A DNA stretch of 34,708 nucleotides, from NCBI GenBank assembly GCA_031551695.1, contig JAVBNG010000056.1, positions 1 through 34,708 on the forward strand, in the 5' to 3' direction. This DNA is from Oscillospiraceae bacterium (GTDB lineage: Bacteria > Bacillota > Clostridia > Oscillospirales > Ruminococcaceae). Shown here in pieces: positions 5,205-33,178 of this stretch (position 1 is the stretch's first letter; each line of letters begins with the position of its first letter). The notes beneath the pieces were generated by a model, which was not told the origin of the DNA, searched no databases, and saw only the letters and a program-made list of their open reading frames with translations. The position numbers were made by a program, and so were the translations under genes.

Positions 5205-5240
5205 CGGTTCAATCCTTATACGTTTCGTTGTTCACGGCAT

Positions 5241-6449: not shown

Positions 6450-6489
6450 GCCAAGCCCTCCTGTTTCTTATTGTATAAAGCAGCATTAC

Positions 6490-6519: not shown

Positions 6520-6558
6520 TTTCGGCAAATCGATCAACAATTTCCAGCGCCAAACGCA

Positions 6559-6589
6559 CCGGCCCCCTGTGCGGCGCACAGGGGGCCGG
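6559..6589 (-). terminator. GC-rich hairpin (13-14 bp stem) downstream of the flotillin gene
   Basis: The inverted repeat ccggccccctgtgc / gcacagggggccgg lies 28 nt after the flotillin stop. Its U-tract is weak. Confidence 0.4.
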
Positions 6590-6616
6590 TCCATATATGG
6601 TGTGGGAACGCCCGAG

Positions 6617-8218
6617 CTAAACGGTCGTTTCGACAAACACCGGCTGCTGCGGGGCTTCGGGCATCCCGCTAATGTTCAGGTTTCTGGTGGTCTGCCCCTC
6701 AAATGTTTTGGCGCGCATGACCTCTTTCAAGTCAAACCCCACGGTTTCCTGCAGGGCTTCGCTTACCGCCACAAGGCCGCTGGTCACGTAACCGGCCACG
6801 TCGCTCACGCCGTCGCCGCCGGCGTTTCCGCCGCCGATAATGGTGATTTTATCGATGCTTGCAAAGGGCTCGGCCACGGCCTTGGCAAGCGCCGGCAGAA
6901 TGTCCGCGATGATCTGCAGCTTGCCCGCCTCGTCCATCTTGGCAAGGGCCTCAGCCTTCTTTTCCAGCGCCTCTGCCTCGGCCAGGCCCTTGGCCCGGAT
7001 GGCGTCGGCTTCCGCCTGGCCGCGCGCTTCAATGATCTTGGCCTCGGCATTGCCCCAAAGCTCTTGGGCTTTGGCCTGGGCCTCGCCGTCCAGCCGGGTC
7101 TTCTCCGCTTCGGCTTCGGCTTTGGCAATCTCTTCAAACTTCCGCGCCTCAGCCTCCAGCCGGCGGCGCTCTTTCTCCGCCTCGGCGGGCTCCAGCACCG
7201 TGGCAATCAACTCCGCCCGGGCGCGTTCCGCCTGGCTTTTGGCCAGCTCGATGTTCTTGTTTTCCTCCGCGATGCGCACCTGCACCTCGGCTTCGGTCAC
7301 TTCCAGCTGGCGGTTCTTTTCCAGCACCAAAGCGTCCAACTGGGTGTTTTTCACTTCTTTCGAGGTAATGTTCGCCTGGATCTCATAGGCCGCGTCGGAC
7401 ACAGCCTTTGTGGTCTCCGATTCCTTTCGGTAGGCCTCCACCTTCAGCTGTTTTTCCTTTTCGGCCAGGGCAATCTCGCTCTCGGCCCGCAGCTGGGCCT
7501 CGCGCCCGGCGCGGCCGGCTTCGGCCGTTTTGATCATCTGCTCCTTTGCCGCCTCGGCGGTTTTGATCTGCTGCTCCTTGGCGGCCTCGGCCTCGGCAAT
7601 GGCTGCTTGGGCCTTCACCTTGGCAATTTGCTCTTTGCCAAGAGACACGATGTATTCTTCGTCGTCGGAGATGTCGTTGATGGTAAAGGATTTGATTTCA
7701 AGGCCCATGGTGCCGAGGGCGGAGTCTACCACCTTTTGCACGTCGGTGGAGAATTTCTCCCGGTCGTCGTACAGTTCTTCCACGCTCATGCGGGAGACGA
7801 TTTCGCGCAGCTTGCCCGTGGCCACCTCCATCACGATGTTCTGGATGGCCTTTTTGGTGGCGGCCTCGTTCTCACTGCTGAACTGCTGCACCGCGGTGAT
7901 GATACTCTCGTTTTCGGCCTTCACTTTTACAATGAGCACGCCGTTGGCGTTGATGGGCACGCCCAGGCGGGTTTTTGTTTTGCTGATGGAAACGTTGATC
8001 TGGATGTTTTCAAGGGTGATGGTGTCTATGCGCTGGAAACCGGGAATGACCATCTTACCCCCGCCGTGCACCACTTTGGGCGCGCCCAGGCCCACGATGA
8101 CGGCGGCCTTGTCGGACGGAACCTTTTTCCACGCGCTCAGCAGGCAAATCATGACGACCACAAGGGCGGCGATGATCACGATGGCCACGCCAAAGGGGCT
8201 TGTGAGTAAATTCAACAT
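6617..8218 (-). CDS. floT: Flotillin-family protein (SPFH/Band-7 domain plus Ala/Glu-rich flotillin repeats), FloT/YuaG-like
   Basis: N-terminal TM helix. SPFH core (VPINANGVLIVKV ... ). Long EA/KA-rich coiled-coil repeats (AEAEAAKEQ ...). The 533-aa size is typical of FloT. Confidence 0.85.
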   Translation of the reverse strand: MLNLLTSPFGVAIVIIAALVVVMICLLSAWKKVPSDKAAVIVGLGAPKVVHGGGKMVIPGFQRIDTITLENIQINVSISKTKTRLGVPINANGVLIVKVKAENESIITAVQQFSSENEAATKKAIQNIVMEVATGKLREIVSRMSVEELYDDREKFSTDVQKVVDSALGTMGLEIKSFTINDISDDEEYIVSLGKEQIAKVKAQAAIAEAEAAKEQQIKTAEAAKEQMIKTAEAGRAGREAQLRAESEIALAEKEKQLKVEAYRKESETTKAVSDAAYEIQANITSKEVKNTQLDALVLEKNRQLEVTEAEVQVRIAEENKNIELAKSQAERARAELIATVLEPAEAEKERRRLEAEARKFEEIAKAEAEAEKTRLDGEAQAKAQELWGNAEAKIIEARGQAEADAIRAKGLAEAEALEKKAEALAKMDEAGKLQIIADILPALAKAVAEPFASIDKITIIGGGNAGGDGVSDVAGYVTSGLVAVSEALQETVGFDLKEVMRAKTFEGQTTRNLNISGMPEAPQQPVFVETTV

Positions 8219-12293: not shown

Positions 12294-15296
<3,003 letters not shown>

Positions 15297-15341
15297 CCTC
15301 ACTCCTTGAACATGCCCGGTAAATATCGTGCATCCACAGAT

Positions 15342-15435: not shown

Positions 15436-15480
15436 AATAAAGCGCGGGCCACCTTGTTGGTGCAGCCCGCGCTTTTCATT
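15436..15480. terminator. Bidirectional terminator at the 3' end of the ABC uptake operon
   Basis: gcgcgggc ... gcccgcgc stem with an A-run before and a TTTTC run after. It lies 30 nt beyond the BMP lipoprotein stop. Confidence 0.55.
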
Positions 15481-15506: not shown

Positions 15507-16574
15507 TTACAGCGGACTTTTGATTTTGCCGTCGATGATATCCTGCTGAATCTGGTTCACCTGGGCAATGATCTCCGGATCCAATTTGTCCTCCCAGTCA
15601 TACCAGGGGGCAAGGCCCTCGGCGCCGTCGGAAATGCCGGAAACGTTGGTCTCATATTTCAGCGTGCCGTTCAGGGAGTTTTCCACCACCACCTGCACCA
15701 GCATCTGGTTGCTTTGCAGGCAGCTGTTCACCACCACGTCCGGGGCCACTTCATACTGGTCGTCCACAAAGCCGATGTGGTAAGTGCCGCGCTCTTTGGC
15801 CGCTTCAATGGCGCCCAGGCCAACGGCGTTGGCGTCACAAGTCACAACGTCGGCGCCGTCGTCGATCATGGCGAGGGCCGTCTCTTTGCCCTTGGCAACG
15901 TCGTCCCAGGTGTTCACGTAGGTAATGGTCACTTCGGCATCCGGGTTCACGGCCTCGGCGCCCGCCTTAAAGCCCAGCATTGCGTTGGAGATGGCCGTGG
16001 TATCCTGTGCGCCGATGGCGCCGATCTTGTTGCTCTGTGAAATGAGGCCGGCCACTGCGCCGCCCACATAGCCCGCTTCCCAGCCAGTGAAGCTATAGGA
16101 CGCAAGATTGGTTCCGTTGGAGTTCGAGCCGTTCAGCACAACAAAGTCGACATCGGGGAACTCTACGCACACTTTTTCGGCGGCGTCACCAAACTGGTAG
16201 CCATGGCCGATAATAAGGTCATATCCGTCGGAAGCATAATCCCAGAACACGCCTTCCATGTCGGACTGGGCCACGTTCTCCTGGTAGGCCCCTTCAATGC
16301 CGTAGTCCTTCTCCGCCGTCATCAAGCCCTCGTAGGCCGTTGCGTTCCAGCCTTTGTCGTTGATGGAGCCCGGCAGCAACAGGGCCACCTTCAGGGCGGC
16401 GGCATCGGTGTCCGCTTCGGTGTCCGCCGCCGAAGCCGCAGTGCTCTCGGCAGTTTCAGCCGGGGCGGCGCTCTCTTCTGCCGGGGCGCTGCTGGACGAT
16501 TGGCTGCCGCCGCAAGCAGCCAGCAAAAGCATGGCGGCCAAAACAAGTGCAAGCAGTGTCTTTTTCATGTTCAA
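15507..16574 (-). CDS. BMP-family (PnrA/Med/TmpC-like) ABC transporter substrate-binding lipoprotein
   Basis: Lipoprotein signal MNMKKTLLALVLAAMLLLAAC. BMP core INDKGWNATAYEGL ... YDLIIGHGYQFGDAA. Ser/Ala-rich linker after the lipobox. Confidence 0.85.
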   Translation of the reverse strand: MNMKKTLLALVLAAMLLLAACGGSQSSSSAPAEESAAPAETAESTAASAADTEADTDAAALKVALLLPGSINDKGWNATAYEGLMTAEKDYGIEGAYQENVAQSDMEGVFWDYASDGYDLIIGHGYQFGDAAEKVCVEFPDVDFVVLNGSNSNGTNLASYSFTGWEAGYVGGAVAGLISQSNKIGAIGAQDTTAISNAMLGFKAGAEAVNPDAEVTITYVNTWDDVAKGKETALAMIDDGADVVTCDANAVGLGAIEAAKERGTYHIGFVDDQYEVAPDVVVNSCLQSNQMLVQVVVENSLNGTLKYETNVSGISDGAEGLAPWYDWEDKLDPEIIAQVNQIQQDIIDGKIKSPL

Positions 16575-16647
16575 TTCTCCTTCTCATCTCAATGTGTATA
16601 TCCTCACCGGGCAAACGCCGGTAAAAACCATAGCAAACGCAAGCTGG

Positions 16648-18162
16648 TCATTGCGCCGCGGAACGGGCGCCCGCCATCATCAGGCCGATTGTTTCACGCG
16701 AAGCGCCCGCTGCGTCCATAATGCCCATCACTTCACCTTCATACATCACCAAAATACGGTCGGAAAGTTCCATAATCTCGTCCAGCTCCGTGGACACCAG
16801 CAAAACCGCACAGCCCTTGTCCCGCTCGCCCACAATGCGGCTCTGGATATATTTGGTGGCGCCGATGTCAAGGCCCCGGTCCGGGTGCATGGCAATGAGC
16901 AATCGCGGCTGCCGCTCCAGTTCACGCCCCACCACAAACTTTTGCTGGTTGCCGCCGGAAAGCTTGCCCGCCATTTCTTCCACAGAAGGGGTTTTGACGC
17001 TGTACTCTTTACAGATACCGTCGGCATATTCGGCGGCCCATTTCCAGTCGATAAAGCCATGGTGGGAACAGGGCGCCTTGTAATAGTTCATCATAATCAG
17101 GTTCTCTTTCACGGACATTTCGCCAGACATCCCCAACAAATGCCGGTCCTCCGGAATGTGGGAAACCCCTTCTTCCAAAATGGCCCGGGGAGAAAGGCAG
17201 GTGGTGTTTTGCCCGCCGATGAAAACCGTGCCCGCCGTGGCGGGGCGCAGGCCTGCCAGGCATTCCACCAGCTCGCTTTGGCCGTTGCCGTCTACGCCCG
17301 CAACGCCCAAAATTTCACCTTCGCGAATAGAAAAGCTCACCTGTTTCAGGGCCTCCAGTTTTTTGTTGTTCAGCGCACAAAGGTTCTCCACCTCCACCAC
17401 CGTTGCGCCCGCTTTGGCAGGCTCCTTCACCGTCGCCAGTTCTACGTCCCGGCCCACCATCAGCCGGGCCAGCTCGTGCGTGTCCCGCACATCGCAGGTT
17501 TGCACCGTGGCCGCCAGGCGGCCCTGGCGCAGCACGGTGCACCGCACACAGATCTCCATTACCTCGGCCAGCTTGTGGGTGATGAAAATGACTGTGTGGC
17601 CGTCACCGGTCAACTGGCGCACCATAGCGAACAAATCGCCCACTTCCTGCGGGGTCAGCACGGCGGTGGGTTCGTCCAAAATCAGCAGCTCGGCCCCGCG
17701 ATACAGTGATTTGATGATCTCCAGCCGCTGCTGCTCGCCCACGGACAGCTGCCACACCTTGGCATAGGGGTCGATGGCCATGTTGTAGCGCGCGGCAATG
17801 GCCTGCACTTCTTTGGCGGCATCGTCCAGGTTCAGCCGCACCTTGCTTTTGTGCATGCCCAGCACCACGTTCTCTATCACCGTAAGGGCGGGGATGAGCA
17901 TGAAATGCTGGTGCACCATGCCAATGCCAAGGGCAATGGCCTCCTTGGGGTCACGGATGTCCACCGGCTTGTCCCGCAAAAAAATTTCGCCGCTGTCTTG
18001 CCGGTACAGGCCGTACAGGATATTCATCAAGGTGCTTTTGCCCGCCCCGTTTTCGCCCAGCAGCGCGTGCACCTCGCCCTTTTCCACAGAAAGGCTCACG
18101 TCGTCGTTTGCCACCACGCCGGGGAAGATTTTTGTGATATTGCGCATTTCCAGAAAAGCCAT
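16648..18162 (-). CDS. ABC transporter ATP-binding protein with two fused nucleotide-binding domains (CUT2 / nucleoside-sugar type)
   Basis: Walker A GENGAGKSTLM in NBD1. A second degenerate NBD follows. 504 aa. Confidence 0.9.
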   Translation of the reverse strand: MAFLEMRNITKIFPGVVANDDVSLSVEKGEVHALLGENGAGKSTLMNILYGLYRQDSGEIFLRDKPVDIRDPKEAIALGIGMVHQHFMLIPALTVIENVVLGMHKSKVRLNLDDAAKEVQAIAARYNMAIDPYAKVWQLSVGEQQRLEIIKSLYRGAELLILDEPTAVLTPQEVGDLFAMVRQLTGDGHTVIFITHKLAEVMEICVRCTVLRQGRLAATVQTCDVRDTHELARLMVGRDVELATVKEPAKAGATVVEVENLCALNNKKLEALKQVSFSIREGEILGVAGVDGNGQSELVECLAGLRPATAGTVFIGGQNTTCLSPRAILEEGVSHIPEDRHLLGMSGEMSVKENLIMMNYYKAPCSHHGFIDWKWAAEYADGICKEYSVKTPSVEEMAGKLSGGNQQKFVVGRELERQPRLLIAMHPDRGLDIGATKYIQSRIVGERDKGCAVLLVSTELDEIMELSDRILVMYEGEVMGIMDAAGASRETIGLMMAGARSAAQ

Positions 18163-18174
18163 CCCGCCGCCCCC

Positions 18175-19095
18175 CTAGTTCTTTTTGTAAGCCCGGCCGG
18201 ACGCCGCCGGCACCTGGCTTTTACCCACAAACCCGCACAGAGCAAGGATGGTGAGCACATAAGGAACCATCAGCAGGAACTGGAACGGGATCTCGGTTCC
18301 GGCAGCCTGCAGGCGGTACATCACTGCCTCGCCCGCGCCAAACACCAGCGAAGCGCCCAAAACACCCACGGGGTTGTAGTTGCCGAACACCACGGCGGCC
18401 ACAGCCATAAAACCCCGGCCAGAGACCATGTTCTCTGTGAAAAAGCTGAGGGACCCCATGGAGACGAAAGCCCCTGCGAAACCCGCCATCAGCCCGCCAA
18501 ACAGCACGGTGCCGTATCGTATTTTGTACACGTTGATGCCCACGGTCTCGCAGGCGCGGGGGTGCTCGCCCACGGCGCGGATGTCGAGGCCGAGGTTTGT
18601 TTTGTACATCACCCACCATGCCATCGGCACCAGCAGCAGCGTCAGGTATACCGGCGCCGTCTGGCTGAACACCGCCTGCCCCAGCACCGGTATTTTGGAA
18701 AGCAACGGAATCGCCACCGGGCCAAACGCGTCGATTTGCGGCGGGGCAGTGTCCAGGCCGAAAAGCACCCTGTCCAGCATGGAGGTGAACCCAAGCCCCA
18801 GCATATTGATGGCAGTGCCGACGACGGTTTGGTCCGCCCCCACGGTGATGGTGAAATAGGCGAACAGCAACGAAACCGCCATGGCGCTTACCATGGCCGC
18901 CAAGGCGCCCAGCCATACGCTGCCTGTGTAGTACGAGCCCACAACGCCCATCAGCGCGCCCACCAGCATCATGCCCTCGGCGCCGATATTGACGACGCCC
19001 GCCTTCGCGCCGAACACAAGGCCCAAGGCGCAAATGAGGATGGGAACGGCGGTGCGAACATCCGTGGCAAGGAAATTGGTGATACCCTGCAACAT
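18175..19095 (-). CDS. ABC transporter permease (BPD_transp_2 / RbsC-NupC-like)
   Basis: Multi-TM hydrophobic protein. The ATG at 19095 lies 1 nt after the upstream permease stop (TGA-T-ATG). The first 119 codons of the ORF-track entry 18175..19452 overlap the upstream gene out of frame and are not coding. Confidence 0.75.
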   Translation of the reverse strand: MLQGITNFLATDVRTAVPILICALGLVFGAKAGVVNIGAEGMMLVGALMGVVGSYYTGSVWLGALAAMVSAMAVSLLFAYFTITVGADQTVVGTAINMLGLGFTSMLDRVLFGLDTAPPQIDAFGPVAIPLLSKIPVLGQAVFSQTAPVYLTLLLVPMAWWVMYKTNLGLDIRAVGEHPRACETVGINVYKIRYGTVLFGGLMAGFAGAFVSMGSLSFFTENMVSGRGFMAVAAVVFGNYNPVGVLGASLVFGAGEAVMYRLQAAGTEIPFQFLLMVPYVLTILALCGFVGKSQVPAASGRAYKKN

Positions 19096-19096
19096 A

Positions 19097-20233
19097 TCAC
19101 GCACCGCCTTTCCGGGCCGCAGAAAGCTTTGCGCGCGGCTTATTTTTAAAAACGTCGAACAAGTCACGTCCCACAACGAACAGGATGACAAAGGCCTGGA
19201 CGATCTGGATGACCGCGGAGGGCACCCCGGCGGACATTTGCATTTTGTTGCTGCCGCTGCGCAAAATGCCGAACAACAGGCTTGCCAGCACGATGCCAAG
19301 CGGCTTGTTGTTGCCCAAAAGGGCCACGGCAATGCCATCAAAGCCGTAGTTTGGGGAAAAACCGGGGAACAGGCGGTATTGGATGCCCAAAATCTCGCTG
19401 GTGCCGGCAAGGCCCCCAAAGCACCCCGCCAAAAACATGGCCAGCAGCGCACTACGTGCCACCTTGATGCCGCAATAGCGCGCGGCTTTGGGGTTCAGGC
19501 CCACCAGCCGCATCTCATACCCCTTGGTAGTGCGCCACATAAATATGTAATAAAACACAACACACAGCGCCGCCAGAAGAACGCCCGCGTGCAGCCGTGT
19601 GCCCTGCCAGATACGCGGCAGGATGGCGCTGTCCGCTATCAGGGAAGACTGTGCGTTGTCGCTGGCAGCGTCCTTCATCGGCCCGGTGGAAAAATAGCTG
19701 ATGAGCTGGATTGCAATATAGTTCAGCATGATGCCGGTGATCATCTCGCTGGCGCCGAAGCGGTTTTTCAGCCAGCCGGCCAGCATTCCCCACAGGCCAC
19801 CGCCCAGCGCCCCCGCCAGAATGACCAGCGGCAAATGGATGATTGCCGGAAACCCGCTAAAATACACGCCCGCAACGGTGGCAAACAACCCGCCCAAATA
19901 CACCTGGCCTTCGCCGCCAAGGTTGATAAGCCCGCACTGTTTCGCCACCGCGAAGGAAAGCCCCGTGAACAACAGAGGCACCGCCTTGATCAGTGTTTCG
20001 CCGATATTCTTTTTGCTGCCGAGGGAACCTTCGATCAAATTGACGCAGGCAAGGCGCCAATCGAAGCCCATGGCCGCAATGATGACCGCGCCCAGCGCCA
20101 GGGATGCGGCACAAGCCACGACGGGGAAAACGGCGGCGCGCGAGCCTTCGCGCAGCTTTTCCCCTATGGTTTTCGATTGCAAGAAACCCCTCCTCCACTG
20201 GTTGAGCCAAAGTGCCTTTATCCGGCAGTGCAA
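19097..20233 (-). CDS. ABC transporter permease (BPD_transp_2 family)
   Basis: N-terminal TM AAVFPVVACAASLALGAVIIAAMGF and further hydrophobic helices. The start is TTG at 20233, or slightly downstream (uncertain). Confidence 0.75.
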   Translation of the reverse strand: MHCRIKALWLNQWRRGFLQSKTIGEKLREGSRAAVFPVVACAASLALGAVIIAAMGFDWRLACVNLIEGSLGSKKNIGETLIKAVPLLFTGLSFAVAKQCGLINLGGEGQVYLGGLFATVAGVYFSGFPAIIHLPLVILAGALGGGLWGMLAGWLKNRFGASEMITGIMLNYIAIQLISYFSTGPMKDAASDNAQSSLIADSAILPRIWQGTRLHAGVLLAALCVVFYYIFMWRTTKGYEMRLVGLNPKAARYCGIKVARSALLAMFLAGCFGGLAGTSEILGIQYRLFPGFSPNYGFDGIAVALLGNNKPLGIVLASLLFGILRSGSNKMQMSAGVPSAVIQIVQAFVILFVVGRDLFDVFKNKPRAKLSAARKGGA

Positions 20234-20250
20234 AACCTGTTTGAATGAGC

Positions 20251-21336
20251 CTAAGTTCCCATCACTTCAAGATATGTCTCCGGTGTAACAAGCGTGGAAT
20301 CCAGCAGCCGCTTGCCGTATTGCTCGCCTTCGGCCTTGAAGTCCTGCCAGGGTTTTAGCCCGCTGGTGTACCAGTCCATCACCGCAATGGCCATCAGGTG
20401 GCCGGCCTGCACACCGTTGATATAGGCCGAGGCCTTAAAGCACGCCGTCCCCTTTTTAAATTCCTCCCTGGCCGCGTAGCCGCCCACGCCTGCCACGGCG
20501 GCGCTGTCCTCTTTGCCGCTTTGCTCCAGCACGCGGCAAACGCTTGCCGCGCCTTCGTCCGTGGGGGCCATGGCCACCCAATAGCGGATGCCCGGATGGG
20601 CCACAATGGCCGCCGACGCCGCATTGAAGGCGGCCTGCCCGGTGCCGTCGTAATCGGCGTAATACATGCGTTCCGCCGGGAAATCCGGCAATTTTTCAAG
20701 GAATCCGGCCACGGCGCCCTCGTGCCTGGCGATATAGTCGGAGGTGCTTTTCATGGTAAGGCACAAAAACCCCACGCCGCCGGTGTCGATCTCGTTTTCC
20801 AGCAAATGGCCGCCCAAAAAGCGCCCAATCTCCAGCCCGCAGGCGTAGCTGTCCACCGCGATGGCCGGGGCCAGCAGACGGCCGCCGTCATCGATCAGCG
20901 GGTCGGAATCGGCCAGCAGTAAAATACCCGCCTGGCCGCACCGCTGCACCGTCACCTTGCTCAAATGCTCGTCCGGAGGGCACACAACCAGGCAGTCGAC
21001 CCCCTGGGTGATCATGTCGTCCAGCGCCACAAGGTAATTGGTGGGGCTCATCTGGGTGTCGGCAACCAACACCCTGGAGGCCCCGCGCTGCAAGCAGCTG
21101 GTTTCCAGCGAGCGCGCCACGTGGGTGAACCACGGCTGGGACAGTTCCTTGCAAATGTACCCCACCACCGGGCCCGGTTTTTCCGCCACGGTGCTTTCGC
21201 CTGAAAAGGCGCTTTGCGGCGCGGCGCCGCAGCCTGCAAGGGCGGCGGCGAGCAACAGGGCCAAAAAGGAGAAAAAACGTTTTTTCCCCCGCCCGGCTTC
21301 CGCCGGGGTGTACAAACCGTAAAAACGTGTTACCAT
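20251..21336 (-). CDS. Type-I periplasmic-binding-protein fold (RbsB/LacI-like Peripla_BP) sugar-binding lipoprotein, first gene of the ABC operon
   Basis: Lipoprotein signal ... FFSFLALLLAAALAGC. PBP1-like pattern of alternating beta-alpha (VGYICKELSQPWF ... VDCLVVCP ... ). GGAGA RBS before the ATG at 21336. Confidence 0.7.
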   Translation of the reverse strand: MVTRFYGLYTPAEAGRGKKRFFSFLALLLAAALAGCGAAPQSAFSGESTVAEKPGPVVGYICKELSQPWFTHVARSLETSCLQRGASRVLVADTQMSPTNYLVALDDMITQGVDCLVVCPPDEHLSKVTVQRCGQAGILLLADSDPLIDDGGRLLAPAIAVDSYACGLEIGRFLGGHLLENEIDTGGVGFLCLTMKSTSDYIARHEGAVAGFLEKLPDFPAERMYYADYDGTGQAAFNAASAAIVAHPGIRYWVAMAPTDEGAASVCRVLEQSGKEDSAAVAGVGGYAAREEFKKGTACFKASAYINGVQAGHLMAIAVMDWYTSGLKPWQDFKAEGEQYGKRLLDSTLVTPETYLEVMGT

Positions 21337-21517
21337 AATATTCTCCGCATGTTTTTCGGTAAATCAATTATACTTGGTACGGCTCCGACAATCATTCAAC
21401 ATCATTCGCATTTTGTCAATAATTGATATTTTTTACAAGTAAATCTTTATCCTCTCCGGCGTAATTGCTATACTGTAACCACGGGAAGGCGGCGGCACAA
21501 AAAGGAGCAATGTGCGT

Positions 21518-23272
21518 ATGCATGAACAAAAGGCCAAGAAGGAAAAACAGCCGCGCATCCGCCGGCTCAGCTTCCAAATGACCCTGTATTTTTCCGTGGT
21601 CATCGTCATCACCTTCCTCACTCTGGCCCTTCTCATCAGCAATTTGTTTGCCGGGCAGCTGATGAAGGAGATGGACGACGTACTGAACAGGAAAATGGGC
21701 CTGATGGACAGCGAGCTGAAAAACCAGCTTTTGCAGGTGCAGGCCCTGCACGCCAGCCTCATCAACGACAACATCCTGCGCACCGGCATGCTGAACGTGC
21801 GCGAAAACGGCGTGGACGCCGCCGGCATGGGCATCATACAGGGCCATTTAACCAGCTTTGCCCGCCAGGCCTCTTATGTTACATCCATTGTGGCATTTGA
21901 CGCCAACCAGAATATTTTGCATTCCTACTATTCCCTGCCGCCCTATTCCAGCCTGGTGGCAAAGTCGGAGGAGTTCAAGGCGTTTCACGCCTCGGCCCGC
22001 ACGCGCAGCTTTACTAGGCCAGATTCTTTTCCCGTGGCCATGGGCTCGCAGGACAGTGGCAGCATCACCTATCTCGGCCTTTTGTATGACCCCGTAGAAG
22101 ACTACGAAACCCTCGGCACCGTGGCCATCAACCTAAAAACAAGCTTTCTGTTTTCCTCCCTTGCCCCGCTGGCAGCCGATTCTTTTGACGCCTGCTTCCT
22201 CACCGGGCCGGACGGCGCCGTTGTTTACAGCACGGCGCGGGAAGGCTTCCAAAGCCTGGGCCCGGCGGATGTAGACAGCTCCTTTCGGATGTACTGCACC
22301 CAAGTGTCCGGCTATCCGGATTGGAAGCTTACCTGCGTGCTGCGTGAATCGGCATTCCAGTCCGGCCTTGTGGACATGTACAAGGTGGTCATCGGCATGT
22401 CTTTGGTGGCGCTGTTTTTCGTCATTTTGCTCAGCTTTTACATCGCCAAAACCATCACCCGCCCCATCGACCGTATGAAGAGCGCCATGGTCATCCTTGG
22501 CGCGGGGGACTACCCGCCGGAAATCACGGCAAACTCCGGCGGCGAAATGCGGGAACTGGTTGTGGGCTTCAACACCATGGTAAGCGACATCCGCCGCCTC
22601 ACCGGGGAGATTATTGAAAAGCAGGAGAAGGAAAAGGAGTATGAGGTGGCCATGGTACAAACCCGGCTGGATCTGCTACAGCTGCAAATCAACCCCCACT
22701 TTATCCACAACACGCTGAATAGCATGAAATATATGGCACAGACCGCCCACAACGACGAACTTGTGGAAACCATCACCGCTTTCAATGCCCTTTTGCGAGC
22801 CAGCATGTCCTCTTTGCAGGAACAGGCCAGCGTGATGGAAGAGATTGTAAACACCCAGAATTACCTGCACTTGCAGCGCGGGCGGTATGGGTTTGCAATC
22901 GGATTTCACCACGAAACAGGCGATGAAGCGCAGTTTGCCCTGCTGCCAAAACTGATTTTGCAGCCCATTGTGGAAAATGCGCTGTTCCACGGCATTGCCC
23001 CGGCAGATGGCGGAAACATCTTCTGCCGTTTTGAAAAGCAGGGCAACGCGCTGGTGGTGACAGTGCGGGACGACGGCGTGGGCATCCCGGAAGAAAAGCT
23101 TGCCGACATTGCAGGTGGCAAGATGGAAAGCGGCCGCAGCTACAGCCACATCGGCCTTGCCAATGTGAACCAGCGGCTGGTGCTGCTGTACGGCGAAGGC
23201 AGCCATTTGCAAATGAACAGCAAAGAAGGGCGCGGCACCACCGTCACTTTTCAAATTCCATTCATCACCTGA
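21518..23272 (+). CDS. YesM/LytS-family sensor histidine kinase (2 TM, approximately 250-aa extracytoplasmic domain, HAMP, His_kinase PF06580, HATPase_c)
   Basis: Diagnostic LQLQINPHFIHNTLNSMKYM box. HATPase GGNIF ... DDGVGI ... The ATG at 21518 is 9 nt after AAGGAG. The GTG at 21512 is an alternative start. Confidence 0.8.
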   Translation: MHEQKAKKEKQPRIRRLSFQMTLYFSVVIVITFLTLALLISNLFAGQLMKEMDDVLNRKMGLMDSELKNQLLQVQALHASLINDNILRTGMLNVRENGVDAAGMGIIQGHLTSFARQASYVTSIVAFDANQNILHSYYSLPPYSSLVAKSEEFKAFHASARTRSFTRPDSFPVAMGSQDSGSITYLGLLYDPVEDYETLGTVAINLKTSFLFSSLAPLAADSFDACFLTGPDGAVVYSTAREGFQSLGPADVDSSFRMYCTQVSGYPDWKLTCVLRESAFQSGLVDMYKVVIGMSLVALFFVILLSFYIAKTITRPIDRMKSAMVILGAGDYPPEITANSGGEMRELVVGFNTMVSDIRRLTGEIIEKQEKEKEYEVAMVQTRLDLLQLQINPHFIHNTLNSMKYMAQTAHNDELVETITAFNALLRASMSSLQEQASVMEEIVNTQNYLHLQRGRYGFAIGFHHETGDEAQFALLPKLILQPIVENALFHGIAPADGGNIFCRFEKQGNALVVTVRDDGVGIPEEKLADIAGGKMESGRSYSHIGLANVNQRLVLLYGEGSHLQMNSKEGRGTTVTFQIPFIT

Positions 23273-23281: not shown

Positions 23282-24844
23282 ATGAAAACCATTCTATTGG
23301 TCGATGACGAATTCCCCGCACGCCAGATGGTGAAAAGCATGGTGGACTGGGGGAAAAGCGGCTTCACCGTGATGTATGAGGCAAAAAACGGCGCCGAAGC
23401 CCTGCAGCTGTATCGCCAGCACAAACCGGACCTTATCATCAGCGATATCCAGATGCCGGTGATGGACGGGCTGGAACTGCTGTCTGCCATCCGTGAAACA
23501 GACCCGCAGCAGTTGTTCATCATCCTCAGCTGCTTCGAACGGTTCGACTACGCGCGGCAGTTGGTGCGCCTTGGAGGACTCGATTACCTCATCAAAGACA
23601 CCCTCACGCCGGAAGGGCTGTACACCGCTTTGCAGCAAGCAAAGGGGAGGCTGGAACCGGCGCAAAAGGATGCCGGAACCGCCGGCAAAGCAGTTCTGGC
23701 GCAGCCCTCCGCCTGCAGCCTGGCCCTGCGGCGGTGGCTGCGTGGCGAAAATGGCGAAGAGACCGCGCGGCAGCTGAGGGAGGCGGCGGAAGAGGACGGA
23801 CGTTTTCTGCTGGCCTGCGCAAAGCTGGAGGGCGGCGGCAGGACTCAGCCGGATGCGCTGGCAGCGTGGCTGGAAGGCCTGCCGGATATTCCCGGCTGGC
23901 GCGGCCGTGCCGCGGGCCCCGGCGGGGAAATCCTGCTGTATTTGTCACTGCCAAAAAACGGGGGCGAGGATGACCCGGCCCGCAAATATGCCCTGCTGCA
24001 GGCGGTGAAAGCCGTGCTGGAAAGCGGTGACGGCAACAGGGCCACACTGGGGGTAAGCGCGGTGCACAAAACCGCCGACGAATTGCCCGCCGCGCGCGCA
24101 GAAAGCGAAGACGCCTTACGCTACCGTTTATTTTTGGGGCAGGGGAATATTTTGTATTACAACCCTTTGCAAAACGCCAGCCATGCCGTGCAGCACCGGC
24201 AGTTGGAAACGCGCATTGCCAATTTACGCGCCGCCCTTGCGGCGGACGAGATGGCCACAGTGAATGGCAATTTGGACAATTTGTACGGCGCAAACCTGCA
24301 CGGCGTCATGCACCTGAATTACCTTACCTACCTCAATTCGGTCTTGTGGGGCATGCTGGCGGAAGAGCGCATGCTGCGCGGCCAGATAGACGCGCCCGGC
24401 GGAGACGGCCCGAAAACAGCGGCGGATGTTTTACGGCTGGGCAGCGTGGAGGAAATGAAAAACACCTTCAGCGGCGCTTTCACGGCTCTTTCAAGCGCCT
24501 GCCGGCGGCAGTCCGCCCCGGAATACAGCCAGCGCGTGCGCCATATCATCCAGTACATCGGCGAGCATTTGGCCGAGGATGTCAGCCTGGACGTGCTGGC
24601 CCGCCATTTTCAAACCCACAAAACCCATCTTGCCCGCACTTTTAAGGAAGAAACCGGCTTGGGCGTGCAGGAGTTCATTCGGCAAGCGCGTATCGAAGAG
24701 GCAAAAAACCTTTTGATGAACAGCCAAATGCGGGTCAACGAGATCGTTTACCATGTGGGCTTCAAAAACGCACAGAACTTTTACACTTTATTCACCCGCT
24801 ATGTGGGCCTTACACCAAAGGCATTCCGCGATCAATATGGTTAG
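23282..24844 (+). CDS. YesN-like response regulator (REC + C-terminal AraC-type HTH)
   Basis: REC LLVDDEFPARQ ... LIISDIQMPVMDG. C-terminal AraC helix-turn-helix ... FKNAQNFYTLFTRYVGLTPKAFR. GGAGGGAG RBS. Confidence 0.85.
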   Translation: MKTILLVDDEFPARQMVKSMVDWGKSGFTVMYEAKNGAEALQLYRQHKPDLIISDIQMPVMDGLELLSAIRETDPQQLFIILSCFERFDYARQLVRLGGLDYLIKDTLTPEGLYTALQQAKGRLEPAQKDAGTAGKAVLAQPSACSLALRRWLRGENGEETARQLREAAEEDGRFLLACAKLEGGGRTQPDALAAWLEGLPDIPGWRGRAAGPGGEILLYLSLPKNGGEDDPARKYALLQAVKAVLESGDGNRATLGVSAVHKTADELPAARAESEDALRYRLFLGQGNILYYNPLQNASHAVQHRQLETRIANLRAALAADEMATVNGNLDNLYGANLHGVMHLNYLTYLNSVLWGMLAEERMLRGQIDAPGGDGPKTAADVLRLGSVEEMKNTFSGAFTALSSACRRQSAPEYSQRVRHIIQYIGEHLAEDVSLDVLARHFQTHKTHLARTFKEETGLGVQEFIRQARIEEAKNLLMNSQMRVNEIVYHVGFKNAQNFYTLFTRYVGLTPKAFRDQYG

Positions 24845-24889: not shown

Positions 24890-25909
24890 ATGCGGCGCGT
24901 GAAAAGATGGATGGCGCTGGCGGCGGCGTTGCTTTTGTTCTCTTTTTGTGCCTGCGGCAGGCAAAGCGTACAAAGCGCGGCCGGCGACGCGGCGGCGGCA
25001 CCGGCGGCCGGGCAGGCTGCTATGCGGGCGGCCGGCCTGCGGGCAGCCGTGGTGCTGGATGGCCCGGCGAACGGCCGCGCCTGGAACGCGGACTGCTGCG
25101 CGGGCCTTTTGCAAGCCCGCGACATTTTGGGCTACGAAATCGACATTGCCGAAAATGTTGCCCCGGCGGACTTCGAGCAGGCCTTCCGCGCCTACGCCGA
25201 GGCCGGGTACGACCTGATCATCGCGCCGGGGCTGCAATATCTGCCCGCGGTGGAAGCTCTTTACGCCGATTACCCCGGCACCCATTTTGCGGGCTTCAAT
25301 TTTCCTTTCACGGCCGGCAATGTAACGTCGCTCAACTTCAACCACCTGCAGGCAGGCTTTTTGGCCGGCGCCCTCGCCGGGCTGTGCACAAAAACGGGCT
25401 CCGTCGGCTTCATCGGCGGTGACGAGGTTTCCTCTACCATGAATGTCATGCGCGGTGCCGGCCAGGGCATTCGCCATGTGCGGGGCGATGTGCAGTTCAC
25501 GGTTTCCACCGTCGGCGCATGGAATGACCCCGCCAAGGCAAAAGGTCTGGCGCAAACACAGATAGGATCCCAGGGCGTGGACGTGATTTTGGCTTACGGG
25601 GACGGCGGCAACCGGGGTGTTGTGGAAGCTGCGGAAGGCAAGGCGGCCTGCATCGTGGTGGACGCCATTGACGCGCGCGTCACCGCCCCGGACACTGTGT
25701 GCGGCGGTGTTTTGCTAAGCAACAGCGCCATGGTATTGTTTGCGGCAGACATCGTGGCCGCAGGCCAAAGCGGGCGGGCCGTGGTTGGCGATGTAGCGAA
25801 CGGTGTGGTGCGGCTGGGTTCCTTTGGCACAGCGGTGGACGGAGCCACGGCGGAAACACTTGGGGGCATTTACGATGATATCGCGTCCGGCAACATAACG
25901 ATTACCTGA
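24890..25909 (+). CDS. Second, divergent BMP-family lipoprotein, encoded immediately after the YesM/YesN pair
   Basis: Signal MRRVKRWMALAAALLLFSFCAC. BMP-like core GRAWNADCCAGL ... YDLIIAPGLQYLPA. The GTG at 24881 is an alternative start. Confidence 0.75.
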   Translation: MRRVKRWMALAAALLLFSFCACGRQSVQSAAGDAAAAPAAGQAAMRAAGLRAAVVLDGPANGRAWNADCCAGLLQARDILGYEIDIAENVAPADFEQAFRAYAEAGYDLIIAPGLQYLPAVEALYADYPGTHFAGFNFPFTAGNVTSLNFNHLQAGFLAGALAGLCTKTGSVGFIGGDEVSSTMNVMRGAGQGIRHVRGDVQFTVSTVGAWNDPAKAKGLAQTQIGSQGVDVILAYGDGGNRGVVEAAEGKAACIVVDAIDARVTAPDTVCGGVLLSNSAMVLFAADIVAAGQSGRAVVGDVANGVVRLGSFGTAVDGATAETLGGIYDDIASGNITIT

Positions 25910-25929: not shown

Positions 25930-25968
25930 AAATAGCCCGGGCAGCTTGCCGCCCGGGCTGTTTCGTTT
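25930..25968. terminator. Bidirectional terminator between the BMP lipoprotein gene and the convergent metal-transport operon
   Basis: agcccgggc ... gcccgggct stem followed by GTTTCGTTTGG. Preceded by AAAAATA. Confidence 0.5.
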
Positions 25969-26771: not shown

Positions 26772-28697
26772 CTATTTTTCGCCCGCGAATTTCCAGCCCA
26801 GCAGGCGGGACGAGTTGAGCACGACGAAAATGGACGACGCATTGTGGATGATGGCGGCTAAAATCGGGTTCAAAAAACCGAGGCCCGACAGCGCGATGCC
26901 GATGACATTCACGAATACGGCAAACACCCAAATATTTTGCTGGATGATGCGGTAGGTGCGGCGGCACAGGGCAAAAATGGCGGGCAGAGCGTCGATATTG
27001 TCCGACATCAGGGTGATGGACGCCGCCTCAATGGCAACGTCCGTGCCCGCGGCCCCCATGGCGATGCCCACGTCCGCCAGCGCCAGCGCGGGCGCGTCGT
27101 TCACGCCGTCGCCCACCATGGCCACCACTTCGCCCTTCGCCTTCATTTCTTTAATGGCGTCCAGCTTTTCCTCCGGCAGCAGGTTCGCCTTGAACTCGTC
27201 AATGCCCGCCTCGGCGCAAATGGCCTTCGCCGTGTACTCGTTGTCGCCGGTCAGCATCACGATATGCTGGATGCCGATGTCCCTTAGCTTTTGCATGGAA
27301 GCAGGCACGGTTTCGCGGATGGTGTCCGCCACAGAGAGCGCCCCCAGCACCCGGCCGTCCTTCACGGCAACCAGCGCCGTGCGGCCAAAGCTCTCTTCCT
27401 GCCGCACAAAGGGCATGATTTCGTCCGCTCCCGCGGGGGCGTCCTCCAGCAGCTTTTTGTTCGAAACCTCATACACCGCGCCGTTGTCCACAGCCTTCAC
27501 GCCCCGGCCAAACAGCATTTCAAATTCGGCGTTGGGGATGTCTTTCATCCTCATCTGTTTTTGGCCTGTTAAAAACGAAACAACGGCCTTTGCAATGGGG
27601 TGGTTCGAGTTCTTCTCGCAAACAGCCAAGCTATACAAAAACTCTTCCTCCGAAGCGCCCGGGGCAACCTGCGTCGCAATCACCTCCGGCGTACCGTTTG
27701 TGATGGTGCCGGTTTTATCAAGGCACAGGGTGGTCACTTTGGCGCTTGTTTCAATGGCCACGCCGCCTTTGATGAGCACGCCGCGCTTGGCCCGGTTGCC
27801 CACGCTGGCCACCACCGCCGTGGGCGTGGCCAGCACCAGCGCGCAGGGGCACGCGATGACAAGGATGGTCATCACACGCATGATGTCCCGCGTGATGAGG
27901 AACGTGATGACGCAGATGACAAGGATGATGGGCAAAAAATACTGGGCGAACACGTCGGCGGATTTTTGGGCGTCGCCCTTGTTCTCCTGCGCGGCCTTCA
28001 CCGTGGCGATGATTTTGCCCAGCACGGTGTTGCTGCCCAGCTTTTCCGCCTCTATCTCAATCACGCCGGTCTCGTTCAACGTGCCCACAAACACCTTGTC
28101 GCCCACGGTTTTGTCCGCCGGCATGGACTCGCCCGTGATGGACGCCTCGTTGATGGCGGCCTGCCCCTTTTTGATCACGCCGTCTACCGCTATTTTTTCG
28201 CCCGCGCGCACCTGGATCATGCTGCCCACGCGCACGCTTTTCAGCGGCACTTCTTTGTACTCGCCGTCCACCAGCATACGGCAGGTGGGCGGCACCAGGC
28301 GAATGAGCTCCCGCACGGCGTTTTTGGTTTTCTCCATGGTCAAATCTTCCAAAAACTCGCCGAAGATCATCATGAACGCCACAATGGCGCCGGACAGGTA
28401 TTCCCCCACCGCCGTGGTGCCGATGAGGGCCAGCACCACCAGCATGCCCGCGGTGATTTTCTTTTTGGCGATGGTTGCCTGCACGGTGGACTTGATAACG
28501 AACACCCCGCCCAGAACAAGCGGGAGGATGGACACGGGGAACGGAATGACCCCCACCCACAAATAATCGAACAGCGCGCCCAGAACGATGAGCACCGCCA
28601 GCACGGCGGGGAAAATGAACACTTTAAAATTAAAAGACGATTTTTTCTTCGCCTTTTGGGCCGCAGCCGCTGCAGCCGGCTGTTTCACTGCTTCCAT
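26772..28697 (-). CDS. P1B-type heavy-metal translocating ATPase with no N-terminal metal-binding (HMA/CxxC) domain
   Basis: CPC motif in VIACPCALVLATPTAV. DKTGTIT phosphorylation site. GDGVNDAPAL hinge. HNASSIFVVLNS in the last TM. The ATG at 28697 has a GGGAGG RBS. The GTG at 28727 from the ORF track is probably upstream leader. Confidence 0.85.
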   Translation of the reverse strand: MEAVKQPAAAAAAQKAKKKSSFNFKVFIFPAVLAVLIVLGALFDYLWVGVIPFPVSILPLVLGGVFVIKSTVQATIAKKKITAGMLVVLALIGTTAVGEYLSGAIVAFMMIFGEFLEDLTMEKTKNAVRELIRLVPPTCRMLVDGEYKEVPLKSVRVGSMIQVRAGEKIAVDGVIKKGQAAINEASITGESMPADKTVGDKVFVGTLNETGVIEIEAEKLGSNTVLGKIIATVKAAQENKGDAQKSADVFAQYFLPIILVICVITFLITRDIMRVMTILVIACPCALVLATPTAVVASVGNRAKRGVLIKGGVAIETSAKVTTLCLDKTGTITNGTPEVIATQVAPGASEEEFLYSLAVCEKNSNHPIAKAVVSFLTGQKQMRMKDIPNAEFEMLFGRGVKAVDNGAVYEVSNKKLLEDAPAGADEIMPFVRQEESFGRTALVAVKDGRVLGALSVADTIRETVPASMQKLRDIGIQHIVMLTGDNEYTAKAICAEAGIDEFKANLLPEEKLDAIKEMKAKGEVVAMVGDGVNDAPALALADVGIAMGAAGTDVAIEAASITLMSDNIDALPAIFALCRRTYRIIQQNIWVFAVFVNVIGIALSGLGFLNPILAAIIHNASSIFVVLNSSRLLGWKFAGEK

Positions 28698-28727
28698 GGT
28701 CGCGCCTCCCTCAGTCTTGCATCCCAC

Positions 28728-28785
28728 ATCCCCCCATGGGGGTTATTCTTGTGTTCATTATATGCCCCTTGCCGCGGGTTGTCAA
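28728..28785 (-). promoter_or_regulatory. Promoter-operator module A: TTGACA (28785-28780), 17 nt, TATAAT (28762-28757), then the palindrome ATCCCCCCATGGGGGTTAT (28728-28746) in the leader of the ATPase operon
   Basis: Consensus hexamers with ideal 17-nt spacing, read on the minus strand. The C6-AT-G5 tract palindrome flanked by AT matches the CsoR/RcnR operator architecture. Confidence 0.6.
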
Positions 28786-29837: not shown

Positions 29838-29891
29838 CCCCCCATATGGTAACTGTGTTCGCAGTATATGCCCGGCGGGGGTTTCTGTCAA
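29827..29891 (-). promoter_or_regulatory. Promoter-operator module B: TTGACA (29891-29886), 17 nt, TATACT (29868-29863), then the G/C-tract element ATAT-C5-AT-C6-ATATGG (29827-29849) upstream of the M20 gene. It also lies in the intergenic region before the divergent CsoR-like gene.
   Basis: About 65 bp shares blocks with module A (tgtcaagcggg, tatatgccc, tgtgttc, C/G tracts), read directly. Confidence 0.6.
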
Positions 29892-29934
29892 GCGGGCGGC
29901 GGCTTCGCGCCCCTTTCACGGAGGTGACACACAC

Positions 29935-30246
29935 ATGGACGACCACGGCCACGGCCATTCCCACACCCATTCGCCGGAGGATTACCAGCGGATGATCAAC
30001 CGCATGTCCCGCATCGTGGGCCACGCAAACGCCATCAAAAGCATGATGGAGGAACAGCGCGACTGCACGGAAATTCTGGTGCAAATTTCCGCCGTGCAGG
30101 CGGCGCTGAACAACCTTGGCAAGCTGATGCTGAAGGACCACATCGACCAGTGCATCGTGCACGCCATCGACGGCTCCACCGGCGAAGAGGAAAAAAAACG
30201 GGTGCTGAACAGCCTGAATGAGGCGATCGAAAAATTTATCCGTTAG
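29935..30246 (+). CDS. CsoR/RcnR-family (DUF156) metal-sensing transcriptional repressor with a His-rich N-terminal extension
   Basis: Family signature QRMINRMSRIVGHANAIKSMMEEQRDCTEILVQISAVQAALNNLGKLMLKDHIDQC. Ligand positions Cys (RDC) and His..Cys (HIDQC). N-terminus MDDHGHGHSHTHS. GGAGGTG RBS. Confidence 0.75.
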   Translation: MDDHGHGHSHTHSPEDYQRMINRMSRIVGHANAIKSMMEEQRDCTEILVQISAVQAALNNLGKLMLKDHIDQCIVHAIDGSTGEEEKKRVLNSLNEAIEKFIR

Positions 30247-33176: not shown

Positions 33177-33178
33177 CG

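Follow-up and report, generated by a model that had tools for sequence, protein, structure and literature searches.

The locus described here is best explained as an eight-gene sensing-and-uptake module rather than as a simple transporter with two carriers. It lies within a stretch of 34,708 nt of Oscillospiraceae DNA, analyzed as a whole and referred to as the window, and is organized in two divergent operons. On balance, we lean toward a reading in which a BMP-type importer is under the control of a three-component system of the XylFII–LytS–YesN kind, with a sugar-type (AraF-like) lipoprotein acting as external ligand sensor. Such a module would be unusual in that sensing and transport rely on binding proteins of two separate families. 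The genes and terminators of the locus are as follows:

15441 to 15472, minus strand: intrinsic terminator closing the minus-strand operon (hairpin followed by UUUAUUU, -32 kcal/mol, z = -3.8)
15507 to 16568, minus strand: BMP1, Bmp-family lipoprotein, 353 aa, lipobox LAAC, ATG at 16568 (PF02608, 232 bits)
16648 to 18162, minus strand: ABC ATPase with two fused nucleotide-binding domains, 504 aa (two ABC_tran stretches)
18175 to 19095, minus strand: BMP-type ABC permease 2, 306 aa (PF02653; NCBIfam "B6 ABC permease 1", 209 bits)
19097 to 20182, minus strand: BMP-type ABC permease 1, 361 aa (PF02653), TTG start behind a GGAGGAGG ribosome-binding site
20251 to 21336, minus strand: AraF-like type-I (Peripla_BP_4) binding lipoprotein, 361 aa, lipobox LAGC, Cys36 (PF13407, 58 bits)
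21512 to 23272, plus strand: YesM/LytS-class sensor histidine kinase, 586 aa (Pfam HAMP, His_kinase (PF06580), and HATPase_c)
23282 to 24844, plus strand: YesN-like response regulator, 520 aa (Pfam Response_reg, HTH_18, and HTH_AraC)
24890 to 25909, plus strand: BMP2, divergent Bmp-family lipoprotein, 339 aa (PF02608, 115 bits)
25934 to 25959, no strand assigned: two-way terminator hairpin after BMP2 (11-bp stem, 9 GC pairs, T-rich on both sides)

The five-gene order that an earlier note on this DNA had read from the minus strand between 15507 and 21336 (type-I lipoprotein, permease, permease, double-NBD ATPase, BMP lipoprotein) was borne out. All five genes are intact, and the gaps between them measure, in this order, 68, about 1, 12, and 79 nt, with no terminator present between the genes of the operon. 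The TTG at 20182 is probably the true start of permease 1 judging from the sequence, in agreement with orthologues of 360-361 aa; the start and ribosome-binding site of BMP1 were likewise read from the letters. A third binding lipoprotein had been overlooked in that note: BMP2 is co-transcribed with kinase and regulator as the third gene of their operon. It shares 33% identity with BMP1, and its start, as read, agrees with the 339-aa gene call P0008.

The translocator is of the BMP type throughout. Permease 1 matched the NCBIfam model "B6 ABC permease 2" with 155 bits and the top NCBIfam match of the ATPase was "B6 ABC ATP-binding protein" with 486 bits, while sugar-permease NCBIfam models gave the permeases of the window at most 29 bits; none of the translocator proteins at this locus reached an NCBIfam equivalog cut-off. 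Neither Pfam nor NCBIfam revealed a sugar-type permease or ATPase, i.e., an AraG/AraH-type translocator, in the window, and tblastn found window-type permeases and ATPase in BMP loci only. It is therefore the sugar-type protein that does not match the rest of the importer, permeases and ATPase both being of the BMP type. BMP/PnrA-type CUT2 ABC importers include NupNOPQ of Bacillus subtilis and PnrABCDE of Treponema pallidum. The locus shares with them the Bmp lipoprotein, two BPD_transp_2 permeases, and the fused double-NBD ATPase. Unlike these importers, it has a sugar-type binding-protein gene in front of the operon, the gene order permease-permease-ATPase-BMP instead of the canonical BMP-ATPase-permease-permease (found in the comparison loci L015 and L013), and in BMP1 and BMP2 a Med-like (D)xGWN loop instead of DxSFN. 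PDB relatives of BMP1 are 7x0r, BmpA, Med, and AtzT. We propose BMP1 as the cognate transport binding protein of this translocator, its cargo probably being a purine-, nucleoside-, or amino-heterocycle-like compound. The sole hint to the cargo, a TRZ/ATZ/MtaD-family deaminase gene following BMP1 in L001 and L019, agrees with a purine- or nucleoside-like substrate.

The sugar-type gene is intact and its AlphaFold2 (AF2) model confident (pLDDT 84). L-arabinose-binding proteins are its best solved relatives: in the model, the two-lobe type-I fold is predicted to superpose on closed arabinose-binding proteins (4kzk and 5abp; TM 0.90-0.91 normalized by target length, rmsd 1.8-2.1 A). Across eight orthologues, neither Cys36 nor the pocket motif GYICK-LSQ-WF varies, and the motif is the same in all transporter architectures compared. 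In arabinose-binding protein (ABP), we take the sugar-contacting residues to be K10, E14, W16, F17, D89, D90, R151, N205, N232, and D235. By alignment, contacts are kept as K63, W69, F70, D145, and R204, and five positions are substituted (E14 by Q67, D89 by S144, N205 by T259, N232 by G285, and D235 by A288); a complete arabinose-contact set was rejected on this basis. The two binding-protein families had been described as structurally unrelated, which is wrong, as they have a common fold (hhalign profile-profile probability 85%, E = 6e-6 over the N-lobe). Matches to both PF13407 and PF02608 occur in several BMP proteins, and the homology between the Peripla_BP_4 protein and the Bmp protein at this locus is remote only. 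The related statement that one translocator type serves both families holds at the level of the CUT2 family only.

The kinase has two transmembrane helices around an extracytoplasmic domain of ~240 aa, followed by HAMP, His_kinase, and HATPase_c; the regulator joins a receiver to an AraC-type double HTH. The low-confidence model of the sensor domain (pLDDT 59) looks dCache-like, with LuxQ periplasmic domains as top fold matches at 11-14% sequence identity, and phmmer with the kinase gave no LytS match. On this model, the locus would resemble LuxP-LuxQ in pairing a Peripla_BP_4 protein with a tandem-PAS (dCache-like) kinase sensor; LuxQ differs in being a hybrid kinase that works within a phosphorelay and has no transporter under its control.

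A parallel in gene content is offered by XylFII-LytS-YesN, the three-component xylose sensor controlling xylFGH in Clostridium beijerinckii, and by the systems of the same type CuaDSR (Ruminiclostridium cellulolyticum) and AraPST (Geobacillus stearothermophilus). As in XylFII-LytS-YesN and CuaDSR, the gene of a membrane-tethered binding protein lies beside a PF06580 His_kinase sensor and a receiver-AraC regulator, an adjacent ABC importer operon is the likely target, and sensing and transport have separate (here putative) binding proteins. A lone binding-protein gene beside a kinase/regulator pair is the signature of both systems and, by analogy, supports a co-sensor role of the sugar-type protein. 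The differences concern the layout as well as the families. The sensing gene heads the transporter operon and not the kinase operon, which in turn contains a third binding protein, and the sensor domain of LytS is a four-helix bundle, unlike the dCache-like one modeled here. Whereas XylFII and XylF, or CuaD and CuaA, belong to one family, the putative sensor here is an AraF-like Peripla_BP_4 protein and the transport protein a Bmp protein. Since sensing and transport binding proteins of the known three-component systems share family and ligand, this comparison speaks against the favored reading.

Relatives with a sugar-type protein at least 40% identical provided nine distinct loci; that all relatives are metagenome contigs of uncultured bacteria is a caveat on the favored reading. 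At all nine, an orthologous kinase adjoins the sugar-type gene and, where the contig allows, can be aligned over its full length including the sensor domain; a YesN-like regulator is present at every locus whose contig reaches far enough. In five lineages (window, L001, L018, L019, and L020), the BMP cassette stands behind the sugar-type gene, so that the comparative check suggested in the earlier note found this linkage retained. In L015-17, a monocistronic sugar-type gene is divergent from kinase-regulator-BMP-ATPase-permease-permease, the translocator being 39-46% identical to that of the window and thus no nearer than that of the unrelated BMP locus L013. L005, L006, and L007 have a sugar-type ATPase, a single permease, and the binding protein beside the kinase. 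Because it travels with kinase and regulator across three different transporter architectures, the sugar-type protein is the likely co-sensor candidate. Of the two alternatives named in the earlier note, co-sensing fits the comparative data best, and interchangeable carriers on one translocator are less likely. In comparison with L001, identity amounts to 66% for the window's sugar-type protein, 67% for its kinase, and 55% for its regulator, but to 77-82% for permeases, ATPase, and BMP1; judged by these identities, the sugar-type protein diverges like kinase and regulator and unlike the transporter components.

The sugar-type gene is divergent from the kinase gene across a gap of 175 bp, in which the following elements were located:

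21367 to 21372, minus strand: perfect -10 hexamer TATAAT of the binding-protein/transporter operon (read from the sequence)
21392 to 21419, no strand assigned: bipartite 28-bp element TCATTCAAC-N3/4-TT(T/C)G(C/T)ATTT(T/C)(G/A)TCAA (cross-lineage conservation)
21467 to 21474, plus strand: extended -10 (TGCTATACT) of the kinase-regulator-BMP2 operon (conservation in seven lineages)

The 28-bp element is found once in the window, with zero copies expected by chance, and once in each of seven lineages at the same intergenic position, where the divergent region also holds both -10 boxes. Its sequence conservation leads us to propose it as a candidate binding site of the AraC-type response regulator. 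No good -35 was found for the minus-strand operon promoter, and the element occupies about -32 to -59, which lends indirect support to activation of this operon by the regulator. On the other side, TTGCTATACT is either conserved or, in L009 and L018, one or two bases off, and all seven lineages place it some 45-50 nt away from the element; the plus-strand ATTATA(C/G) is conserved across window-type loci. The minus-strand TTGACA pointed out earlier exists at 21419-21414, within the conserved element. The palindrome TCAATAATTGA reported to overlap it is also present (21416-21426), but was rejected as a regulatory signal: the window contains 55 such 5+1+5 palindromes, shuffling of the intergenic region yields one in 20% of shuffles, and the right arm differs in every orthologous locus.

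According to the three-component reading, the AraF-like lipoprotein, tethered on the outer face of the membrane, would bind a small polar ligand and, once loaded, would contact the YesM-class kinase at its dCache-like extracytoplasmic domain and signal to it. The kinase would phosphorylate the AraC-type regulator, which may bind the 28-bp element between the divergent operons and, as we infer, activate the operon of co-sensor, permeases, ATPase, and BMP1 from its promoter with a perfect -10 and no -35. Being encoded in the very operon that the regulator is proposed to activate, the sensor protein would be auto-amplified. BMP1 would deliver the putative cargo to the BMP-type translocator as its cognate binding protein. 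BMP2 may descend from a carrier formerly equipped with a separate translocator and would now most likely feed the same translocator or be auxiliary.

The sugar-type protein could instead, together with BMP1 and perhaps BMP2, dock on one BMP-type translocator, giving a multi-carrier importer with a broader substrate range in which it may also signal. We consider this rather unlikely. It would be in line with the position of the sugar-type gene, first in the transporter operon and 68 nt before the permease without a terminator, with the linkage to the BMP cassette kept in five lineages, and with the common fold of both families. ChvE as well as chitin- and citrate-binding proteins signal to kinases, and systems in which one binding protein combines transport with signaling are documented. 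Against the favored reading, the same lineage of sugar-type proteins is the only carrier of the sugar-type ABC in L005-L007, i.e., a genuine transport protein there, and its presence beside a BMP translocator in two independent architectures fits cross-family docking equally. However, the permeases clearly belong to the BMP type, proteins with ~40% identity to the sugar-type one work, judging by gene context, with single-permease sugar translocators, the L015 gene is co-transcribed with no translocator, and the divergence rate follows the sensor genes instead of the transporter genes. Our literature search returned no case of a Peripla_BP_4 sugar-type and a Bmp protein on one translocator. The full version, in which one translocator accepts three lipoproteins of two families (AraF-like and two BMPs) and the sugar-type protein both delivers cargo and signals, the membrane module having been swapped from sugar-type to BMP-type with the original binding protein kept, appears improbable to us.

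Two further readings, both of which we regard as quite doubtful, assign the kinase another input. By analogy to Med and KinD of B. subtilis, BMP2 might be the extracellular partner, with the sugar-type protein as carrier or leftover; KinD is a dCache kinase reported to require the BMP-family lipoprotein Med. This precedent and the place of BMP2 inside the kinase operon weigh against the favored reading. BMP2 comes directly after the regulator in the window, as do its orthologues in L001 (51% identical) and L015 (46%), lacks its own translocator in the window, and is the fastest-diverging component relative to L001; both BMPs resemble Med and match its structure 2hqb, and the low-confidence sensor model matches, among other folds, the sensor domains of KinD. 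Med, in contrast, is encoded apart from KinD and without a transporter, whereas BMP1 stands inside a full transporter operon. Moreover, L006 and L007 have the orthologous kinase and the sugar-type protein but no BMP gene nearby, and the BMP2 orthologue of L015 is the first component of a canonical BMP-ATPase-permease-permease transporter and thus a transport carrier there. The kinase might also sense directly, leaving the sugar-type protein without a role here, either as a hitch-hiker left over from a sugar ABC operon that was replaced or as carrier for a translocator elsewhere. As dCache-like domains can bind ligands directly, a co-sensor would not be required if the modeled fold is right; CuaSR keeps some signaling without CuaD, and the evolution of these loci implies the replacement of a sugar-type translocator. 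Yet the sugar-type gene is intact, its product is confidently predicted to fold, and lipobox and pocket residues are invariant in lineages just 40-70% identical. The gene has also kept its place next to the kinase in spite of two or more rearrangements, which speaks for selection and against a remnant.

In the three-component systems studied so far, sensing and transport paralogues of the same family guarantee that the sensed molecule is the imported one. If the three-component reading is true, a conserved triad of AraF-like protein, dCache kinase, and AraC-type regulator would have been re-plugged onto a sugar-type and two different BMP-type cassettes; sensor and transporter modules would be exchangeable, and sensed and imported molecules would not need related binders. 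Docking of the sugar-type protein on the BMP translocator, if this is the true arrangement, would call for revision of assumptions on the specificity between CUT2 binding proteins and translocators. For experiments, the locus offers one operator candidate and three binding proteins whose ligands could be screened, and uncultured Oscillospiraceae and Lachnospiraceae contribute a natural series of architectures. The contig carrying the window is itself of the gut-Clostridia type.

The minus-strand transporter operon at 15507-21336 comprises five intact genes in the order given by the earlier note, separated by gaps of 68, ~1, 12, and 79 nt in which no terminator-like sites were found and followed 3' of the last gene by a strong hairpin with a U-run (-32 kcal/mol, z = -3.8). 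The module considered there was too small, as a divergent plus-strand operon adds a kinase, a regulator, and a third binding lipoprotein, with a two-way terminator at its 3' end. The genes and promoter elements are as follows.

20251-21336, minus strand: AraF-like "sugar-type" binding lipoprotein (Pfam Peripla_BP_4), 361 aa, lipobox LAGC
20182, minus strand: most likely start (TTG, after GGAGGAGG, read from the sequence) of permease 1 (BPD_transp_2)
19095-18175, minus strand: permease 2 (BPD_transp_2)
18162-16648, minus strand: ATPase, 504 aa, two ABC domains
16568, minus strand: ATG start of BMP1, Bmp-family lipoprotein, lipobox LAAC
21372-21367, minus strand: perfect TATAAT -10 of the transporter operon, without usable -35
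21467-21474: conserved extended -10 TGCTATACT, serving the kinase operon
21512-23272, plus strand: YesM/LytS-class kinase, extracytoplasmic domain at residues ~48-288
23282-24844, plus strand: YesN-like receiver-AraC regulator
24890-25909, plus strand: BMP2, third binding lipoprotein, 33% identical to BMP1, 45 nt past the regulator with no terminator between

Decay of one operon lipoprotein to a pseudogene, named in the earlier note as speaking against its proposal, was not observed; intact reading frames with lipoboxes rule this out for all three binding proteins, and the conservation of orthologues of the sugar-type protein and BMP2 argues further against it. A riboswitch or other RNA leader was discarded, as no Rfam match occurs anywhere in the window.

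The permeases and the ATPase score 155, 209, and 486 bits against BMP-associated NCBIfam models, whereas neither permease exceeds 29 bits against sugar-permease models, and tblastn with all three returned matches in BMP-type loci only. Since the translocator is thus of the BMP type and the window holds no sugar-type permease or ATPase (its sole other ABC protein is an exporter), the carrier that matches it by family is BMP1, and the AraF-like protein is the odd one out. The two had been called structurally unrelated, which is wrong: profile-profile comparison relates them with 85% probability (E = 6e-6) over the N-lobe, where K-E-L-S-Q-P-W-F, the pocket loop of the sugar-type protein, aligns to G-D-x-S-F-N of the BMP family, and several BMP proteins carry both Pfam matches. 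No publication identifying the best BMP match, PDB 7x0r "Lbp", was found.

Nine distinct loci encoding a sugar-type protein of at least 40% identity were recovered, every relative being a metagenome contig. Sampling was thin, because the genome scan delivered five loci only and the word-indexed searches seven and two matches. When 1.84 billion representatives were searched exhaustively, 615 matches reached E <= 1e-3 and just 25 reached E <= 1e-30, confirming that the protein forms a rare branch. The loci fall into three architectures.

Architecture A (the window; L001, from an uncultured Oscillospiraceae MAG; L018; L019; L020), sugar-type protein 66-73% identical: BMP2 <- regulator <- kinase / sugar-type protein -> permease -> permease -> ATPase -> BMP1, to contig ends
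Architecture B (L015-17), sugar-type protein 48% and kinase 61% identical: monocistronic sugar-type gene, divergent from kinase -> regulator -> BMP -> ATPase -> permease -> permease
Architecture C (L005; L006, Robinsoniella; L007, Lachnospiraceae), sugar-type protein 40-43% identical, kinase 38% identical across its whole length: sugar-type ATPase, single permease, sugar-type protein; followed in L006 and L007 by a URO-D/MtaA-like gene, kinase, and regulator, and preceded in L005 by a kinase fragment at the contig edge

Conservation of the operon, the lack of which the earlier note counted against its proposal, holds for the five architecture-A lineages to the contig ends but not for B and C, which have other transporters. 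The single BMP protein of architecture B is a BMP2 orthologue (46% identical to BMP2, 36% to BMP1, 52% to the BMP2 of L001), and its translocator shares only 39-46% identity with that of the window, no nearer than the unrelated BMP locus L013. Remoter relatives (38-39% identity; L008 and the contig of protein P0007) have sugar-type ABCs and no kinase. Comparison of architectures A to C thus identifies sugar-type protein, kinase, and regulator as the invariant core and the transporter as the exchangeable part. Between the window and L001, identity is 66% for the sugar-type protein, 67% for the kinase, 55% for the regulator, and 51% for BMP2, and 77-82% for permeases, ATPase, and BMP1, a divergence pattern weakly consistent with a split into sensor and transporter genes. 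L001 also harbors, at 1-1850, a second BMP-type permease/ATPase set (~44% identical to that of the window) that converges on the module from its BMP2 side. An unrelated 982-aa gene lies between this set and the module, and the set, at 40% identity, is no orthologue of the L015 translocator; kinship of the 982-aa product with the CHASE4 kinase of the window was considered and dropped.

Alignment of the divergent intergenic region (175 bp in the window) across seven lineages revealed a bipartite 28-bp element, TCATTCAAC-N3/4-TTTGCATTTTGTCAA (window 21392-21419), present once in the window and once in L015, whereas chance alone would yield zero matches. It lies ~45-50 nt from the kinase -10 and, in architecture-A loci, ~20 nt from the transporter -10, i.e., at approximately -32 to -59 relative to the transporter promoter, the position expected of an AraC-type activator, and is the putative operator of the regulator. 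Ahead of the L015 BMP operon, no second copy of the element was found. The TTGACA highlighted earlier forms one end of this element and is not the operon -35, since 41 nt separate it from the perfect -10; an alternative pairing of TTGACA with AATGAT was dropped because AATGAT is weaker than the conserved TATAAT. The palindrome TCAATAATTGA reported with it is present, yet carries no signal: 55 palindromes of such form occur in the window, one in five intergenic shuffles contains one, and none of the orthologous loci shares its right arm, which rules it out as an operator.

The model of the sugar-type protein is confident (pLDDT 84); superimposed on L-arabinose-binding proteins in their closed form, it yields TM 0.90-0.91 and an rmsd of ~2 A. 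Contacts in the E. coli arabinose-binding protein are K10, E14, W16, F17, D89, D90, R151, N205, N232, and D235. Aligned to this set, the protein retains K10, W16, F17, D90, and R151, with E14, D89, N205, N232, and D235 altered; because of these five alterations L-arabinose itself is unlikely to be the ligand. Across architectures A, B, and C, neither the lipobox cysteine nor any of the pocket residues varies, and the same or a similar ligand is probably bound in all of them. In distant sugar-ABC-type relatives a URO-D family gene consistently accompanies the binding-protein gene (L006:10967-12004, L007:5809-6831, L005:4398-5669, P0007 contig), its best NCBIfam matches being MtaA/CmuA-type methyltransferases, all under cut-off, with no corrinoid protein nearby; this company hints that the ligand of that clade is not an ordinary sugar. 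Public gene calls of two orthologues, P0003 (L019:969-2114) and P0004, place the start too far upstream, that of P0003 overlapping the 28-bp element. Their predicted N-termini lack a clear lipobox cysteine (LLILQPVS), and some orthologues may be anchored via an uncleaved signal peptide.

By analogy to systems of the XylFII-LytS-YesN and CuaDSR kind, we lean toward a three-component sensor driving a BMP-type importer. The tethered AraF-like protein would sense the ligand and pass the signal to the kinase, and the phosphorylated regulator would turn on the divergent operon via the 28-bp element, thereby raising both the sensor protein itself (positive feedback) and the importer with BMP1 as carrier. 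Operon linkage of the sugar-type gene and its co-occurrence with BMP translocators in two architectures would fit equally well with the two-carrier transporter of the earlier note, i.e., cross-family sharing of the translocator by a sugar-type protein that possibly also signals, which we regard as possible but rather unlikely. That the kinase senses directly and the sugar-type protein is idle at this locus appears improbable, given the strong conservation of the latter. The kinase itself does not discriminate here: its sensor-domain model is poor (pLDDT 59), as only two extra homologues were usable, and secondary-structure order and fold matches (LuxQ periplasmic domain, KinD, vpHK1S-Z8, Mlp24; TM ~0.45-0.5) indicate a dCache-like domain, a fold whose members can bind ligands directly or via binding proteins (LuxP-LuxQ, HptA-HptS). 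A LytS-like sensor domain, reportedly a four-helix bundle and dissimilar to the model, was dropped, as phmmer gave no LytS/5XSJ match and the fold search, indicative only at this pLDDT, returned dCache domains. A metagenome scan with the sensor domain mostly recovered the Robinsoniella locus again.

A role of BMP2 as kinase cofactor has a precedent in Med-KinD, but kinase orthologues exist without any BMP gene, and we give this option little credence. BMP2 appears to be a carrier left over from an ancestral transporter as in architecture B, whose translocator was lost in the lineage of the window, and may now share the translocator of the divergent operon. A widespread kinase-regulator-BMP2 module was dropped, the closest non-orthologous BMP2 relatives (<=35% identity) occurring in ordinary nucleoside-type or unrelated contexts. 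In the family pocket loop D-x-(S/G)-(F/W)-N (BMP2 residues ~60-68), the Asp is lost only in the BMP2 copy of the window (ANGRAWN, vs IDDGGWN in L015, IFDAGWN in L001, and INDKGWN in BMP1), perhaps a sign that ligand binding has changed or relaxed in this orphan carrier.

A TRZ/ATZ/MtaD-family amidohydrolase lies 3' of BMP1 in two relatives (L001:15900-17255, L019:6918-7430; 72% identical mutually), with 5'-deoxyadenosine deaminase and 8-oxoguanine deaminase as best matches, all under cut-off. Together with the known ligand range of the BMP family, this deaminase suggests that the cargo resembles a purine, a nucleoside, or an amino-heterocycle. While parts and overall logic of such a system are already known, three features are unusual, and we found no description of them in the searched literature: a sensing triad whose binding protein is of the sugar type and which is coupled to a BMP-type importer, a sensing gene heading the transporter operon, and a natural series in which the triad has been joined to one uptake cassette after another.

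In the window, the amidohydrolase is absent and the terminator is followed, directly 3' of BMP1, by a CHASE4 hybrid kinase of 1002 aa that carries two receiver domains (12294-15302) and forms a dense signaling cluster with genes at 284-8218 (hybrid HisKA kinase-receiver, GGDEF protein, PAS hybrid kinase, FIST protein, flotillin/SPFH protein). GC content is high across 31843-34525, reaching 69% within 32001-33000; both strands carry long ORFs there, and none of the three minus-strand ORFs tested matched a Pfam family. A P-type ATPase, an M20 peptidase, and a 212-aa ORF with a C-terminal CsoR-family metal repressor domain are found at 26772-30246; as the N-terminal ~125 aa of this ORF have no Pfam match and overlap the end of the opposite-strand peptidase gene, its true start may be internal. 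At 30431-31699, a 422-aa ORF combines three tandem RidA/L-PSP (PF01042) domains in a single polypeptide.
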